This document shows, piece by piece, positions 934 through 7,585 of a stretch of 23,730 nt of DNA (the stretch's first letter is position 1; each line of letters begins with the position of its first letter). The notes beneath the pieces were generated by a model. The model ran no database searches, was not told the origin of the DNA, and saw only the letters and a list, made by a program, of their open reading frames with translations. The translations under genes and the position numbers were made by a program. The DNA is taken from assembly GCA_049424145.1 (NCBI GenBank), contig JBMSSC010000033.1:1-23730 (forward strand), written 5' to 3'. This stretch comes from Bdellovibrionia bacterium (GTDB taxonomy: Bacteria; Bdellovibrionota; UBA1018).

Positions 934-3417
934 ATGTTAGAAAAAGATCACACGAACGAATCGAAAAATGGATTGGACTCCGATCGCACCGCACCGGCAG
1001 ACCCCTCCAACCCCGATTCTTCTCGATCCGGCAGCGTGGCTCTGACGGATCAACTGATGCCCACCAATCTGTTTATCCTCCCCACCAACAGCCCGATTGT
1101 ATTTCCTACCTTGCTCGCTCCGCTTTTAGTGACTCATCCTCGATTAGTGGCCATGATTGAAGAGGCGATTAACCGTCAGCGGATGATCGGATTAGTGTTG
1201 GTCAAAGAGGGTGACATCAAAGAAGACATCAAGCCTGAGCACCTCTACCCCGTGGGCGTTGCCGTAAAGATCATTAAGCGGCTGAAGATGCCGGATGGCT
1301 CGGTGAACCTCTTGGTTCACAGCATGAAGCGGTTTCGAAGCAAAAGAATCCTCTCCGAGCAGCCCTACATTGTTGTTGAAACGGAGTACTTAGACGACCG
1401 AGTGGAGAAGACCACGGAGACGGATGCCCTGACGCGCTCGATTGTCAACCATGTGAAAAAACTCTCGGAGATCAACCCGTTTTTCACGGAAGAAATGAAG
1501 CTTGCCATGATCAACGCTCCGGGCCCAGGAACCGTGGCTGATCTGGTGGCCTTTGCCCTCACCCTTCCTAAATCCGATGCCCAGGATTACCTGGAAACGC
1601 TCTCGGTGAAAGCCCGATTTGAAAAACTCCTTCTGCACCTCAAACGAGAGCAAGACGTTGCGGACTTACAAAAGAAAATCAACGAGGACGTCAACAGTAA
1701 GTTAGGCAAGCTCCAAAGAGAGTTCTTTTTAAAAGAGCAGCTGAAATCGATTAAAAAAGAGCTCGGCATGGAGATTGACGGTAAGGACAAGTCGAGCCAA
1801 AAGTTTAGAGCCCGCATTGAGTCAGCAGGGATGCCTGAGGAAGCCAAAAAGATCGCCTTAGAAGAGCTGGAGAAGTTTGAATCCATTTCAGAGACGTCGC
1901 CCGAGTACAACCTGACGCGAAACTACCTGGAGACCCTTTGCTCACTGCCTTGGAGCACTGAATCCGTCGATCAACTCGATCTCGAGCGCGCTCAGAAGAT
2001 CCTCGATGAGAATCACTATGGGTTAGAGAAGGTCAAAGAACGAATCATTGAGTTTTTAGCCGTTCGCAAACTCAAGCAGGATCCCAAGGGATCGATGATT
2101 TGCCTCGTGGGTCCCCCGGGCGTGGGAAAAACCTCCATTGGCAAATCCATTGCAAAGACCTTAGACCGAAGCTTCTTTCGCTTCTCGCTTGGGGGCATGA
2201 GAGACGAGGCTGAGATCAAAGGCCACCGCAGGACTTACGTGGGTGCCATGCCCGGTAAAGTCCTTCAAGGCTTAAAACGAGCCGGAACGAAAAACGCCGT
2301 TCTCATGCTGGATGAAATCGATAAGCTCGGAAGCAGTTTTCAAGGGGATCCTGCCTCAGCTCTTTTAGAAGTGCTTGATCCGGAGCAAAACAGCACTTTT
2401 TTAGATCACTACTTAGACATCCCCTTTGATCTATCCCGCGTCCTGTTCATCACAACAGCCAATACGGTGAGTTCCATTCCAGGCCCCCTCTTAGATCGCA
2501 TGGAGGTCATTGAACTCCCTGGCTACACGCTTGAGGAAAAAGAACAGATTGCCCAACAGTATGTGATCCCCCGGGAATTAGAAGCCAACGGTGTGAGCCC
2601 CTCTCAGCTAAAGATTGAGAAAAAAGCGCTCCGCCAAATGATGACCGACTATGCTCGCGAGCCAGGCTTAAGGTCCTTACAAAAACTCATTAACCAGATT
2701 GCCCGCAAATCCGCCACGCAAATTGTAAAAAATGAGCAGGCCCTCAGGAAAGCCAAAAAACCAACGCCTCCTTCCAAAAAAGGGGCTCCCATTGTGATTC
2801 GAGAAGGAGACCTTCAAAAGTGGTTAGGACCAAAGCGATTTTACAATGAGGCCGCTAGCCGAATTGTGGCTCCAGGCGTGGTGATCGGTCTGGCTTGGAC
2901 GGCCTTAGGTGGCGACATCCTGTTCATTGAAGCAGCTGAAGTGCCCGGCTCAGGCCTTTTAAAGCTGACAGGACAAATGGGAGGCGTCATGACGGAAAGC
3001 GCGAACATTGCCTGGAGTTACATTAAGAAGAAGATCATCTTAGAGGGCATCCAAGAGCGAAAGTACTTTAAGTCCTATGACTACCATCTGCATATCCCTG
3101 CAGGAGCGATCCCCAAAGATGGCCCATCTGCTGGGATCACGATGGCCACAGCGCTCTACTCGCTTCTCACCGGACGGAAGGTTAAAAACAAGATCGCCAT
3201 GACGGGCGAGCTCTCGTTGATTGGGAAAGTCCTTCCCGTGGGAGGAATTAAAGAGAAAGTCCTTGCCGCTCGACGCTCTGGGATTCACACTCTGATTCTG
3301 CCCAAACTCAATGAAAAAGACGTCACTGAAATTCCAGCGTATGCTCTTTCAGGGATGACGATTCATTACGTCAACCACATTGAGGAAGTTTTACCCTTGG
3401 CTCTAAAACTGTCTTAA
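934..3417 (+). CDS. lon: ATP-dependent Lon protease (LonA)
   Basis: LON N-domain, Walker A GPPGVGKT, HRRTYVGAMPG, Walker B MLDEIDK, catalytic PKDGPSAG and GGIKEK (Ser-Lys dyad). ATG 934 preferred over TTG 847 because GAGG lies at 921-924 and the promoter-like motif lies at 850-877. Confidence 0.97.
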   Translation: MLEKDHTNESKNGLDSDRTAPADPSNPDSSRSGSVALTDQLMPTNLFILPTNSPIVFPTLLAPLLVTHPRLVAMIEEAINRQRMIGLVLVKEGDIKEDIKPEHLYPVGVAVKIIKRLKMPDGSVNLLVHSMKRFRSKRILSEQPYIVVETEYLDDRVEKTTETDALTRSIVNHVKKLSEINPFFTEEMKLAMINAPGPGTVADLVAFALTLPKSDAQDYLETLSVKARFEKLLLHLKREQDVADLQKKINEDVNSKLGKLQREFFLKEQLKSIKKELGMEIDGKDKSSQKFRARIESAGMPEEAKKIALEELEKFESISETSPEYNLTRNYLETLCSLPWSTESVDQLDLERAQKILDENHYGLEKVKERIIEFLAVRKLKQDPKGSMICLVGPPGVGKTSIGKSIAKTLDRSFFRFSLGGMRDEAEIKGHRRTYVGAMPGKVLQGLKRAGTKNAVLMLDEIDKLGSSFQGDPASALLEVLDPEQNSTFLDHYLDIPFDLSRVLFITTANTVSSIPGPLLDRMEVIELPGYTLEEKEQIAQQYVIPRELEANGVSPSQLKIEKKALRQMMTDYAREPGLRSLQKLINQIARKSATQIVKNEQALRKAKKPTPPSKKGAPIVIREGDLQKWLGPKRFYNEAASRIVAPGVVIGLAWTALGGDILFIEAAEVPGSGLLKLTGQMGGVMTESANIAWSYIKKKIILEGIQERKYFKSYDYHLHIPAGAIPKDGPSAGITMATALYSLLTGRKVKNKIAMTGELSLIGKVLPVGGIKEKVLAARRSGIHTLILPKLNEKDVTEIPAYALSGMTIHYVNHIEEVLPLALKLS

Positions 3418-4281
3418 ATCTTTGGACCAAAGGACTTCCCCTGAGATGCCATCCACCATCATCTCGCGACCCTCGATGAAGATTCGATAGGCAATGTGCC
3501 CCTCAGTGGCATTGATCATAGAAATCACCTGAGAGACGCCTTGGGGCTCCATCCGCGTAGCATTCGTCACGGACTCCTGTGCATGAGAGGCCCTCCAAGC
3601 CGAAGTCCAAGCCACACTTTCCTGAATCTGCGGCTCACCCAAAATCCTGGGACGAAGCACATAATCGGACTCCACCGAGAGGATCTCTCCGTGCTTGCCC
3701 AGATCCACTCGCACGCTGCCGTCAGGATAAAACGGAATCCCCCGATAAGTTTGCCTAAAACTCACCTGGGCGGACATTGGACCGCAGTGCGGCTCCGAGG
3801 CCATGAGAGGAAACTCGGGATCCACGCCCATCAGACTTGCCAATGCGTTTTGAATCTCTTGGCTGCGCTGAATCACCTCCTTGGGGTCCGATGGATCAAA
3901 CCCCTGCAACGCGCGCGTGCTCCGGTCAAGAGGCGAGGGAAGCGGAGCACCCTGAATGGAAACTAAGACGCCCTGTTTGCTAAAGCGAGGAACCAGGTGA
4001 GCCCCAAACCTTTGTGTGAACTGCTCCCACTGTTGAGAGGAGGAGGACTTTTGCGCGGGCACGACTGAGGAGGACACCCCAGAATCAGCTCCGGTGGCCA
4101 GAGGTGATCCTAACGAACGAGCCTTGGAATCGGAATGAGAAGGGGCTTTCCCCGAATTTCCTGCCACCTGGGCAGGGACCCTTCCCTCCTGCGTTTGAGT
4201 CCCTGATTGGAACCAATGGATGCCACCCCAAAGCAGCATCAAAACCGCACCAAGCGCTAAAATCCACCGTTGAGCCTTCAT
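3403..4281 (-). CDS. Stand-alone metalloprotease propeptide-like protein (signal anchor + Ser/Gly linker + FTP-like + PepSY-like domains), no catalytic domain
   Basis: Hydrophobic N-terminus WILALGAVLMLLWGG; FTP-like VSFRQTYRGIPFYPDGSVRVDLGKHGEILSVESDY; PepSY-like PQIQESVAW...IAYRIFI...VDGISGEVLW at the very C-terminus; no HEXXH; GGAGG RBS 5 nt before the ATG. Confidence 0.75.
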   Translation of the reverse strand: MKAQRWILALGAVLMLLWGGIHWFQSGTQTQEGRVPAQVAGNSGKAPSHSDSKARSLGSPLATGADSGVSSSVVPAQKSSSSQQWEQFTQRFGAHLVPRFSKQGVLVSIQGAPLPSPLDRSTRALQGFDPSDPKEVIQRSQEIQNALASLMGVDPEFPLMASEPHCGPMSAQVSFRQTYRGIPFYPDGSVRVDLGKHGEILSVESDYVLRPRILGEPQIQESVAWTSAWRASHAQESVTNATRMEPQGVSQVISMINATEGHIAYRIFIEGREMMVDGISGEVLWSKDLRQF

Positions 4282-4298
4282 GAAGTCCTCCGAGCGTT

Positions 4299-6287
4299 TT
4301 ATTCGATGGTGAGTTCAACGGTTCTCTTGGAGGCCACTGCATTGGACGGCGCAGCTTCAATCTCAAGCTCCACTGTTTTTCCATGTGAAGCCCCCTCCGC
4401 CACCTTCACCCAAACGGCTGTCCTTAAACTCCGATTAAAAAATGGATTGGTTTTAAAATAACTATTTCCTATTGGAATACTCGACCGCCCCAATCCTGAT
4501 CCTAAAGCTGTGACAATGGAATTTCCATTAATTTTTTCATACATGACTTGCGTTTGATTCAGCCCTGATCGAGTCATATAACCCACATTGATCCGCTGAT
4601 CGAGGATCTCAAGATCGGGATCCAAGGAGCTCACCGTTACAAGAACTCCGCCCACCGTGGGATCCGCTTGATTCTGAAGATCAAACCAAAGGGTGGCGAT
4701 CTCACCGGGATTCAGCGTGTGATTGACTTGAGGGGTAAATCGACGAAACACGGCTTGAGAATCCACCCCCAGCTGATCCAACCACCCGGAGAGCACCTCG
4801 GGATTATCCTCAATATACACCCCCGGAGTCAGGGCAGTTGAGCCACCCACAGTGGCACCACTGCCTAAGCCCAGCCAATCCTCACGATCCACAAAGGGAG
4901 CATCAAATAAACCTCGAGCTCGAAGAGCGGCTTGGATGCGACTTTGGTCCACGGAGTTCAGGCCAGAAATCCAGGGAGCATAATTCACCAAGTTCTGAGC
5001 AAAAAGAAGAAAGGTCACAGGCGAGTGATTCGTAGTGGTGTTCGGCTTTGGCAAATGCCTGAGAGACTCAAGAATCAGTTGAGAAACCATCTTCTTTGCC
5101 GATGCCTCATCCTCGGAATGCCCTGAAAGCACTGCTGAGTAAACATCCCACAACGCCCCCAGCATCACCATCCCCGCATTATGAATCTCCTCTTGAGACG
5201 GATAACCCAGGAAGATTTTCTGAGCCGCTTGACTGCCTTTCACATTGGCAGGATAAGGCCAGCCTAAACCGTCTGGATAAACATAACTGATGGTCGTCTG
5301 ATACCCATTCTCCTGACGGGGAAGAGAAAACCCGGGAAACCCGTCACACGAGGGATACCGAGAATCGTATACGGGGCATAGATGGGCGCCTCGGACATGA
5401 CTACTTTTCGGATCAAAGGTTCCCAGCGCCCAGCGACTAAACACGCGGGGGTCTAGATTTCTTGAGGAAACTTGAGGTGCCGTAAAAATCAAACTCATCA
5501 CATCGGAGATCGCCTCATTTAAAGCGCCTGCTTCGTCATAGAAGAGCTGACTTAAGTCATGCTCACTGGAATACTGCTCGGAAGTGGTTGCATGCTGAAG
5601 CTCATGGAGAGTGACCACAGCATCATCCCCATAAAACGCCCCAGGGGTTCTTACGGAATCCCCCAAGCACACTCGCTTGACTGGATTTCCCCGTGAATCC
5701 ATGCCTCGAATAAAGTAGGCATTATCATTTAATTCACAATGAGCGATGATCTGAACAGGCCCCCCAGCTGAGCTTCGACTTCTACCGCCGGTTGCCCCTG
5801 ATGGCTGAAGGTACCCAATGCTGTCTAAAAAGGACTGATAGGAATCCCCGAAGTAATACGTCATGGCTTCACCAAAACGCCAGTCTCGATGACTGTAGAT
5901 AAACTGATTGGCAGGATCGTAAGCGCCATACTTTTCCTGACACTTAAGCCCATTTAAGACTTGAATGTAGGAGCCTGAAAGCACTCCATTGCCCCGCAAA
6001 TGCGCTAACTCCACCGTTTGAAGGAGTTGATCCAAAGGACCCACTCTGGGCGTCAGTCCTCGATTTCCAGAGCGCACAATGGGGTCTGGGTTAAACACTT
6101 GAGCAAGACCCACGGAACCTAACCCGGAGGGCAAGCGCTTGGGAGCGCAAGAGGCCTGATCCGCAGGCTCAAGTCCAGTGGAGCTAGGGGAGTCTCCCAA
6201 GCCCAGACACCCAGAGAGGCCCAAAAAAAGCAACAAGAGCACAGACGTTCGAACCAGAGCTAACTGAGAAGTGCGTTTTTTAATCAT
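4299..6287 (-). CDS. Thermolysin-like (M4/M36-type) zinc metalloprotease lipoprotein with C-terminal Ig/CARDB-like domain
   Basis: Lipobox LSG-C27; NAYF (thermolysin NAFW); HELQH (5592-5606); GALNEAISD with the third Zn ligand Glu (about 5502-5528); EEIHNAG (thermolysin VHINSG); C-terminal LNPGE...LQNQ...GVLVTVSSLDP beta-sandwich pattern. Confidence 0.88.
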   Translation of the reverse strand: MIKKRTSQLALVRTSVLLLLFLGLSGCLGLGDSPSSTGLEPADQASCAPKRLPSGLGSVGLAQVFNPDPIVRSGNRGLTPRVGPLDQLLQTVELAHLRGNGVLSGSYIQVLNGLKCQEKYGAYDPANQFIYSHRDWRFGEAMTYYFGDSYQSFLDSIGYLQPSGATGGRSRSSAGGPVQIIAHCELNDNAYFIRGMDSRGNPVKRVCLGDSVRTPGAFYGDDAVVTLHELQHATTSEQYSSEHDLSQLFYDEAGALNEAISDVMSLIFTAPQVSSRNLDPRVFSRWALGTFDPKSSHVRGAHLCPVYDSRYPSCDGFPGFSLPRQENGYQTTISYVYPDGLGWPYPANVKGSQAAQKIFLGYPSQEEIHNAGMVMLGALWDVYSAVLSGHSEDEASAKKMVSQLILESLRHLPKPNTTTNHSPVTFLLFAQNLVNYAPWISGLNSVDQSRIQAALRARGLFDAPFVDREDWLGLGSGATVGGSTALTPGVYIEDNPEVLSGWLDQLGVDSQAVFRRFTPQVNHTLNPGEIATLWFDLQNQADPTVGGVLVTVSSLDPDLEILDQRINVGYMTRSGLNQTQVMYEKINGNSIVTALGSGLGRSSIPIGNSYFKTNPFFNRSLRTAVWVKVAEGASHGKTVELEIEAAPSNAVASKRTVELTIE

Positions 6288-6352: not shown

Positions 6353-7585
6353 CTAACGCACAACTTCAAGCCTGAGAACTATTTTTCTTAACTCTTTTAA
6401 TAACTCCTGCGTATGCTGCACGCCTCGCGTTTCAAGCGTCAAGGCCACATCCGTCTGATCAATCTGAACGGAGGGCTCGTTTCGATCATGAATAGCTTGC
6501 AGGATATTGGCTCCCTGCTGAGCAATGACGCTCGTCAACTTGGCCAATGACCCAGGACGATCCGCCAGTAAGACGTTTAAACGAACCCTGCGACCCGTGC
6601 ACACTAACCCTCGGTCAATAATGCGCGATAACAGGTTCACATCAATGTTTCCGCCACTGATGATCAGAACAACTTTTTTCCCACGGATTTTTTTCTTCAA
6701 CTGCTCAAGAGCGGCCAAAGGAACGGCACACGAGCCCTCAGCAATGATCTTAGCTTTCTCAATGAGCATCAGCACGGACGCCGCAATCGCATCCTCCTCC
6801 ACCTCGACCCATTCATCGATCTTTCCACTCAGAAAACGCCGAATCCGATCACTGGCTTTCATCACCGCAATGCCATCGGCAAACGTATCGACCGACTCCA
6901 AGGTAATGGATCTTCCTTTGCGAATGGATTGAATCATGGAGGATGCTCGCGCTGCCTGACAGGCCACCACCTGTGTCTTAGGACTGAGCCCCTCAAACAC
7001 GGTTGCCACCCCAGACATGAGCCCCCCTCCTCCCACGCTTCCCACCACATAATCCACTTGGGGAAGCTGCTCTAGGATTTCAAGAGCCACCGTACCTTGA
7101 CCCGCAATGATCTCCGGATCATCAAAGGCATGAATCAAGATTCGACCCTGTTTTCGGCTCACCTTCTTGGCATACGCACAGGCCTGATCATAATTCTGCC
7201 CCTGCAAAATCACCTGGGCCCCTAAGCTTTGAGTGTTTTGAATCTTCATGATCGAAGCTGACTTGGACATCACAATGCAGGCATGAGTGCCAAGCTTAGC
7301 TGAGGCCCAGGCAACTCCCTGCGCATGATTCCCCGCACTTGCAGCAATCACCCCTTGACTCTTCTGCTTCCGACTCAGTTGGGAGATTTTATACGTGGCC
7401 CCCCGAATCTTAAACGACCCAATGGGTTGCATGTTCTCGAGCTTCAAATACACCCGACACTCCAGGGCATCACTTAACCACGGGTTGTAGAGCAAAGGCG
7501 ACGGGGGTAAATGCTTTTGAATCTCTTTTCTAGCCTCTTGGATATCCGCAAGCGTCACATTCAACGCCGGTTTCACTCGACTCAT
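6353..7585 (-). CDS. ilvA: Threonine ammonia-lyase (PLP-dependent, single C-terminal ACT domain; IlvA/TdcB-type)
   Basis: LKLENMQPIGSFKIRG (PLP lysine), ASAGNHAQGVA, GGGGL, ISGGNID, ACT domain starting DRPGSL. Confidence 0.93.
   Translation of the reverse strand: MSRVKPALNVTLADIQEARKEIQKHLPPSPLLYNPWLSDALECRVYLKLENMQPIGSFKIRGATYKISQLSRKQKSQGVIAASAGNHAQGVAWASAKLGTHACIVMSKSASIMKIQNTQSLGAQVILQGQNYDQACAYAKKVSRKQGRILIHAFDDPEIIAGQGTVALEILEQLPQVDYVVGSVGGGGLMSGVATVFEGLSPKTQVVACQAARASSMIQSIRKGRSITLESVDTFADGIAVMKASDRIRRFLSGKIDEWVEVEEDAIAASVLMLIEKAKIIAEGSCAVPLAALEQLKKKIRGKKVVLIISGGNIDVNLLSRIIDRGLVCTGRRVRLNVLLADRPGSLAKLTSVIAQQGANILQAIHDRNEPSVQIDQTDVALTLETRGVQHTQELLKELRKIVLRLEVVR

Follow-up and report, generated by a model that had tools for sequence, protein, structure and literature searches.

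A conserved Bdellovibrionota gene pair predicted to encode an M36-like protease and, separately, an FTP-PepSY propeptide

Contig JBMSSC010000033.1 of a Bdellovibrionia bacterium (assembly GCA_049424145.1), analysed here as one window of 23,730 nucleotides, carries two adjacent minus-strand genes that we call gene 1 and gene 2 (Table 1). Gene 1 is predicted to encode a zinc metalloprotease lipoprotein without a propeptide, and gene 2, which follows after a 17-nt gap in the open reading frame (ORF) calls, is predicted to encode a free-standing protein with the FTP-PepSY fold of the propeptides of such proteases. A sequence-only reading of the same DNA had already proposed that the second protein is a detached propeptide of the first; the ORF coordinates, the gap, the GGAGG ribosome-binding site, the lipobox and all the motifs that it named, including VFNPDP and NAYF in gene 1, are present in the sequence. 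The pair lies in a housekeeping region of ordinary guanine-cytosine content, flanked upstream by a gene for threonine dehydratase and downstream by lon, which is convergent, ends at 3417 and overlaps the end of gene 2 by 15 nt (3403-3417).

Table 1. Features of the gene pair, in window coordinates
Feature	Position (strand)	Remarks
Gene 1	4299..6287 (-)	662-residue propeptide-less zinc metalloprotease, a lipoprotein of a bacterial M36-like family
Lipoprotein signal peptide and lipobox LSG-C27	6207..6287 (-)	+2 residue is Leu
Catalytic domain, residues ~58-463 (predicted)	4899..6116 (-)	begins where mature LasB begins; LasB 1-298 aligns to 58-463
HELQH zinc-binding motif (228-232), H228/E229/H232	5592..5606 (-)	invariant in 94/94 aligned homologues
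E258 in NEAISD (257-262), predicted third zinc ligand	5514..5516 (-)	invariant; matches the neutral-protease NEAISD motif
H369 in EIHNAG (367-372)	5181..5183 (-)	invariant in 94 aligned homologues
C-terminal immunoglobulin (Ig)-like beta-sandwich, residues ~468-662	4302..4886 (-)	predicted model, fold comparison
Ribosome-binding site of gene 2, GGAGGA	4286..4291 (-)	inside the 17-nt gap; GGAGG core 4291-4287
Gene 2	3403..4281 (-)	292-residue stand-alone FTP-PepSY propeptide protein
Hydrophobic helix at the N terminus, likely left uncleaved as an inner-membrane anchor	4210..4263 (-)	helix residues 2-27 in model
Disordered Ser/Gly/Pro linker	4051..4203 (-)	predicted local distance difference test score (pLDDT) <50 over most of residues 31-76
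Propeptide fold, residues 78-292 (predicted)	3406..4050 (-)	FTP motif 173-204, PepSY ~215-289
Gene 2 C-terminal DLRQF and stop	3403..3420 (-)	predicted autoprocessing position of fused relatives

Judged by its sequence and its AlphaFold model (pLDDT 91.7), the product of gene 1 is a predicted zinc protease of the M36/M4 fold with its catalytic residues intact, nearer in fold to M36 than to M4. The four best Foldseek matches of the model are all M36 enzymes, with M4 enzymes next, and VIA-align superimposes the catalytic fold on M36 7qp3 with Z 31.4 (root-mean-square deviation, rmsd, 3.0; 326 residues aligned) and on thermolysin with Z 25.4 (rmsd 3.8; 293 aligned), so that the 'M4/M36-like' protease of the sequence-only reading stands as a zinc protease and leans towards M36. 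Gene 1 has both the HExxH motif and the downstream ExxxD zinc motif of M36, and, besides the thermolysin fold, the GxxNExxSD motif of M4 in the form GALNEAISD. H228, E229, H232, E258, D262, R299 and H369 are invariant across 94 homologues; we take H369 to be the counterpart of the transition-state histidine of thermolysin. Pfam scores of the query proteins fell below the cut-offs (PF02128, the M36 family, 18.1 bits for gene 1 against a gathering score of 23.3; M4_C, 15.1 against 24.4, with no M4 match at E 1; FTP, 15.6 against 21), and a search of NCBIfam gave nothing useful; the assignment is carried by profiles and folds. PF02128 is present in 28% of the ESM Atlas cluster of gene 1. At E 0.001, 123 proteins match gene 1, and the best 120 of these, the query excepted, are 36-59% identical to it. 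The lipobox cysteine is aligned in 92/94 homologues, and in all 37 complete gene pairs it lies 27-43 residues from the motif at which the catalytic domain starts, which leaves no room for a propeptide; no FTP-PepSY prodomain was found in the gene 1 chain of any of the 37, as the sequence-only reading had held. The model adds to that reading the Ig-like domain at the C terminus, which resembles transglutaminase, alpha-2-macroglobulin and cohesin-type sandwiches with Z about 7-8, which is no more than a likeness in a widespread fold.

The model of gene 2 (pLDDT 84.4) comprises an N-terminal helix, a disordered linker, 38-71 residues long across homologues, and a folded part. In a crude regular-expression test, an AxA-type cleavage site after the hydrophobic stretch was found in 4/37 homologues of gene 2 (hereafter partners) against 37/42 secreted controls, and its rarity in partners points to an uncleaved anchor. 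Foldseek returned four matches at E 0.001, namely the MCP-02 propeptide (twice), YpeB and the fungalysin propeptide, with E 1.8e-8 to 3nqz_A and 3.4e-6 to 4k90_B. By VIA-align YpeB (Z 11.5, rmsd 5.4, 184 aligned), fungalysin (Z 11.1) and MCP-02 (Z 10.6) tie, and YycI and YycH too rank high by fold. When a profile built from 26 partners was run against PDB sequences, the first three places went to the thermolysin, MCP-02 and A. fumigatus fungalysin propeptides (E 0.0015, 0.029 and 0.1), and hhalign matched the partner profile to the propeptides of fused relatives with 98.8% (E 1e-16); among the 26 members FTP was detected in 9/26 and PepSY in 9/26 at E 0.5. The Atlas structure rows for gene 2 are M4/M36 precursors. 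Searched as a single sequence, gene 2 found only itself, and context and profiles were needed. Fold and profile comparisons thus agree with the claim that gene 2 has the FTP-PepSY propeptide fold. No Lif chain occurs in the fold lists of gene 2, which PepSY proteins lead, a family outside those lists being possible, and matches to BamB were set aside as chance similarity to the C-terminal hairpin. The ESM Atlas rows for P0002 also contain clusters of partner-like proteins of 221-271 residues, commonest in Acidobacteriota, Thermodesulfobacteriota and Bacillota, which are possibly stand-alone propeptides in other phyla, or fragments.

The stop codon of gene 2 falls, by sequence and model alignment, at the predicted autoprocessing site of fused zymogens, the cut in the bacterial fused relatives being placed by reference to MCP-02 and fungalysin. 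Searching 1.84 billion representatives with a profile yielded 1321 matches, and what we say of them concerns the best 150 of the 1321. Outside the close relatives of the pair (clade A), many of the full-length proteins listed as next-nearest relatives of the catalytic domain are fused FTP-PepSY-M36 zymogens. Residue 292 of gene 2 aligns with residue 204 of 3nqz_A and residue 245 of 4k90_B, the last residues of both propeptide chains, and DLRQF, which in gene 2 is followed by the stop, directly precedes the catalytic start in one fused relative. When the last 16 residues of 37 partners were slid along 30 fused junctions and scored by mean BLOSUM62, a single peak of +0.51 appeared at offset 7, that is, 7 residues ahead of the F in the FxPxP catalytic start motif, and the other 15 offsets scored from -0.73 to -1.27. 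At the peak position 11/30 fused proteins have Y or F, with A or V as the next residue in 19/30; the last residue of the partner is F, Y, H or R in 29/37. The partner end lies 16 residues past the Asp of DAxTG in 29/30 parsed sequences, and the same holds for partners of clade C, a class-level clade.

The named close relatives are metagenome-assembled genomes labelled Oligoflexia, Bacteriovoracaceae or Bdellovibrionota. From 51 loci of named genomes, two distant relatives and two loci ending at the protease were set aside, which left 47 with downstream DNA; the partner lies directly downstream of the protease in 46 of them, in one case in pieces. This set overlaps a 30-locus set, and the number of distinct complete pairs is 37. 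The protease was found in 29 of 61 related genomes, a partner match in 31 and both in 27, the genomes being kin and not independent. Two protease-only genomes carry shortened partners (78 and 178 residues), and of the four partner-only genomes three have fused zymogens and one a true orphan with a degraded tail. Within this clade, then, the pair is conserved, gene 2 has its FTP/PepSY fold and homologous proteases mostly have the partner, in line with what had been expected from the window. One genome, G033, has a second split pair, of clade C (L137:1382-3933), beside its clade-A pair.

Other families of Bdellovibrionota have the split layout too. An 811-residue relative from a Bacteriovoracaceae record (L080), whose protease had no plasmid match, has a match in 53/57 genomes of family f22, and an anchored ORF of 161-225 residues follows the protease in 30/30 f22-type loci with a called protease (L104, with no ORF called, was dropped). 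Among 20 weaker-match regions 18 were split pairs and 2 were fused; 20 further regions comprised 7 split (L232 and L237, described below, among them), 11 apparently fused, judging from where HExxH lies (5 of these matching a propeptide profile), and 2 propeptide-less without a detected partner, both sets having been hand-picked from search tables, so that these fractions are not frequencies. Partners of clades C and D match fused propeptides with 99.1% and 97.4% by hhalign. At L232:1183-5208 two tandem propeptide-less lipoprotein proteases are followed by one shared partner. At L237:1157-3255 a propeptide-less protease has its partner on the opposite strand, the two being convergent with overlapping stops, and in families f21 and f24 (L223-L229) lipoprotein proteases of ~455 residues apparently keep a short fused propeptide. 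A FastTree tree of 92 catalytic domains (302 columns) places clade A together (99), beside clade B, the Bacteriovoracaceae-type sequences (93); it is compatible with one origin of the split or with several.

The FTP-PepSY fold, the catalytic fold and the C-terminal register of the propeptide are shared with fused M4/M36 zymogens (MCP-02, 3NQY/3NQZ; fungalysin, 4K90; thermolysin; LasB), whose propeptide is a chaperone and inhibitor according to PMC6490944, PMC5078317 and PMC6117016. Unlike those zymogens, the pair has two genes in reverse order with separate export signals and needs no cleavage, and its protease is lipid-anchored and its propeptide likely membrane-anchored. M4 propeptides can work in trans when artificially expressed. 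In a literature search that had most subscription journals and all supplements outside its scope, no natural split FTP-PepSY/M4-M36 pair was found described. SleB-YpeB of Bacillus spores resembles the pair in that an exported enzyme and a membrane-anchored PepSY protein share one operon, and YpeB has been proposed to keep SleB inactive until YpeB is degraded (PMC13393411). Gene 2 combines a membrane anchor with a PepSY-repeat fold, as YpeB does. However, SleB is a lytic transglycosylase and gene 1 a zinc protease, so the operon is not of the YpeB kind, and gene 2, unlike YpeB, is recognizable as a propeptide of the family that the neighbouring protease belongs to. Protealysin-emfourin of Serratia and RhpP-RhpC of Pseudomonas likewise have an M4-type protease gene followed by an inhibitor/chaperone gene in one operon; in PMC6490944 and PMC9505478 protealysin is described as intracellular, RhpP as lacking a Sec signal and RhpC as an 11-kDa cytoplasmic protein, and neither emfourin nor RhpC is described as FTP-PepSY. 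A non-exported protease with a small cytoplasmic inhibitor does not match gene 1, with its lipobox, and gene 2, a 292-residue anchored protein. Lipase-Lif pairs have the enzyme gene first, followed by that of an inner-membrane-anchored periplasmic helper on a flexible linker, a similar layout for a different enzyme, and neither sequence nor profile comparison linked the pair to Lif. Of the Lif-like architecture in the sequence-only reading, the likely anchor and the linker stand, with SleB-YpeB as the closer precedent for the layout. The pair is apparently undescribed, yet assembled from known parts and known logic: propeptide chemistry and a SleB-YpeB-like layout.

The established parts are the two folds, the conservation of the catalytic residues, the order and coupling of the genes, and the junction register. 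Building on them, we consider it probable that gene 2 encodes a propeptide that inhibits in trans, whether or not it also helps folding. In such a naturally split zymogen both proteins would be exported separately, and gene 2 would stay in the inner membrane, likely anchored, on its 38-71-residue tether. In the periplasm it would dock on the protease in the manner of the autoprocessed complexes of vibriolysin and fungalysin, its free C-terminal residue lying in the active site, and hold the protease inactive; it probably helps folding as well. In complexes of this type the propeptide C terminus contacts the zinc. Activation could follow once Lol sorting carries the protease off to the outer membrane and so separates it from its tethered partner or, alternatively, when the partner is degraded. 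Movement to the outer membrane is suggested by the presence of Asp at +2 in only 1/92 homologues and by the LolA encoded in the genome. We hold only as a tentative possibility the bolder proposal that much of Bdellovibrionota has given up the zymogen for a complex that is 'pre-cleaved' in the genes themselves, in which an inner-membrane propeptide, reusable and with its end exactly where the scissile bond used to be, would fold and block one or several lipoprotein proteases, activation coming from trafficking off the tether and not from proteolysis.

Several observations weigh against a trans-acting inhibitory propeptide that plugs the active site. Bdellovibrionota may not follow the +2 sorting rules of E. 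coli. The last residue varies even in clade A, with 11 different residues among 37 partners; clade B partners keep the PepSY part only (hhalign 41%, E 0.0003) and have longer, variable tails, and clade D partners have tails of 1-7 residues, so not every clade fits the model of a free C terminus. Two propeptide-less Bdellovibrionota proteases (L234 and L238) had no detected partner, and in genome G025 an orphan partner with a degraded C terminus (L132:2264-3046) occurs where the gene 1 query found no protease. In the models, YpeB equals the propeptides as a fold match for gene 2. Some of these points favour a partner resembling YpeB or YycI, which would stabilize, position or regulate the protease at the membrane, or act on another envelope protein, and leave the cleft unplugged: YpeB, YycI and YycH stand high in the fold lists, an orphan partner exists, clade B partners are PepSY-only, and SleB-YpeB shares the layout together with mutual stabilization (PMC13393411). 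We nevertheless regard this explanation as unlikely, since sequence profiles tie the partner to the fused propeptides of the same protease family and the junction register speaks against it.

A further group of relatives bears on whether folding help is needed. In the P0259 family, secreted propeptide-less relatives of ~340 residues, we took the best 80 of 573 metagenome loci, 45/80 of which extend 900 bp or more downstream; none of the 80 had a propeptide ORF next to the protease gene and in the same orientation, unlinked partners not having been sought, and two annotated Streptomyces loci of this type likewise lack an adjacent propeptide gene, which also counts against a propeptide in trans. 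One locus of the family has an opposite-strand ORF that looks fused, and the P0259-type loci L141-L222 include Streptomyces plasmids. The propeptide profile used recovers 34/37, 6/6 and 10/11 known partners, but 3/30 in clade B, so divergent partners could be missed in the P0259 loci. These partnerless relatives suggest that the catalytic domain may not need a propeptide, which makes an obligate foldase role doubtful and inhibition at least as likely as folding help. Of the reusable foldase or inhibitor that the sequence-only reading had envisaged, the propeptide identity stands, and the reusable foldase is the weakest part. A partner acting purely as a Lif-like foldase, which would fold the protease at the inner membrane, release it and be reused with no lasting inhibition, appears to us slightly less probable again than the YpeB-like role. 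The membrane anchor, the long linker, the single partner beside two proteases in L232 and the folding help described for propeptides (PMC6490944) all fit it; however, the stop codon held at the scissile-bond register points to active-site occupancy, and propeptide-less relatives without a partner exist. That the pair is a frameshifted, mis-assembled or decaying fused gene, as the one locus with both genes in pieces (L079) and the Pfam scores under cut-off might suggest, is already refuted by the conservation of the pair in dozens of genomes, by 37 distinct complete pairs, the reversed order with two export signals, an independent contig from a second study (run X2) that covers 4218-4442 across the gene junction with zero differences, and strain differences in gene 2 that, by our own reading of those listed, lie at third codon positions in 9/12 cases.

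Elsewhere in the genome an ordinary fused M4-type zymogen of 554 residues is encoded (G000:C7:32673-34337), so the host does not impose the split form. Promoter and terminator scans of the window stayed near the shuffled level (6 versus 3.5 and 9 versus 6.3, respectively). The threonine dehydratase gene (6353-7585), on the same strand, is found upstream in 15/30 related loci as well, which is probably synteny rather than function; lon does not appear as downstream neighbour among the related loci listed. At 114-716 a 200-residue ORF with no useful Pfam match carries an IHFILDG...ELRFLF pattern, presumably resembling the C-terminal domains of Rhs-type proteins.

The propeptides of M4 and M36 proteases are textbook intramolecular chaperones, used once and then destroyed. 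A natural and conserved two-gene form separates folding help, inhibition and cleavage, so that each becomes testable by itself, and suggests that activation depends on location. The pair also offers a concrete target for a long-standing idea, namely that PepSY proteins standing alone act in trans as regulators of proteases (Yeats et al. 2004, cited in PMC4282423), and a function can be proposed for two unannotated genes that are widespread as a pair in a phylum with bacterial predators among its members.

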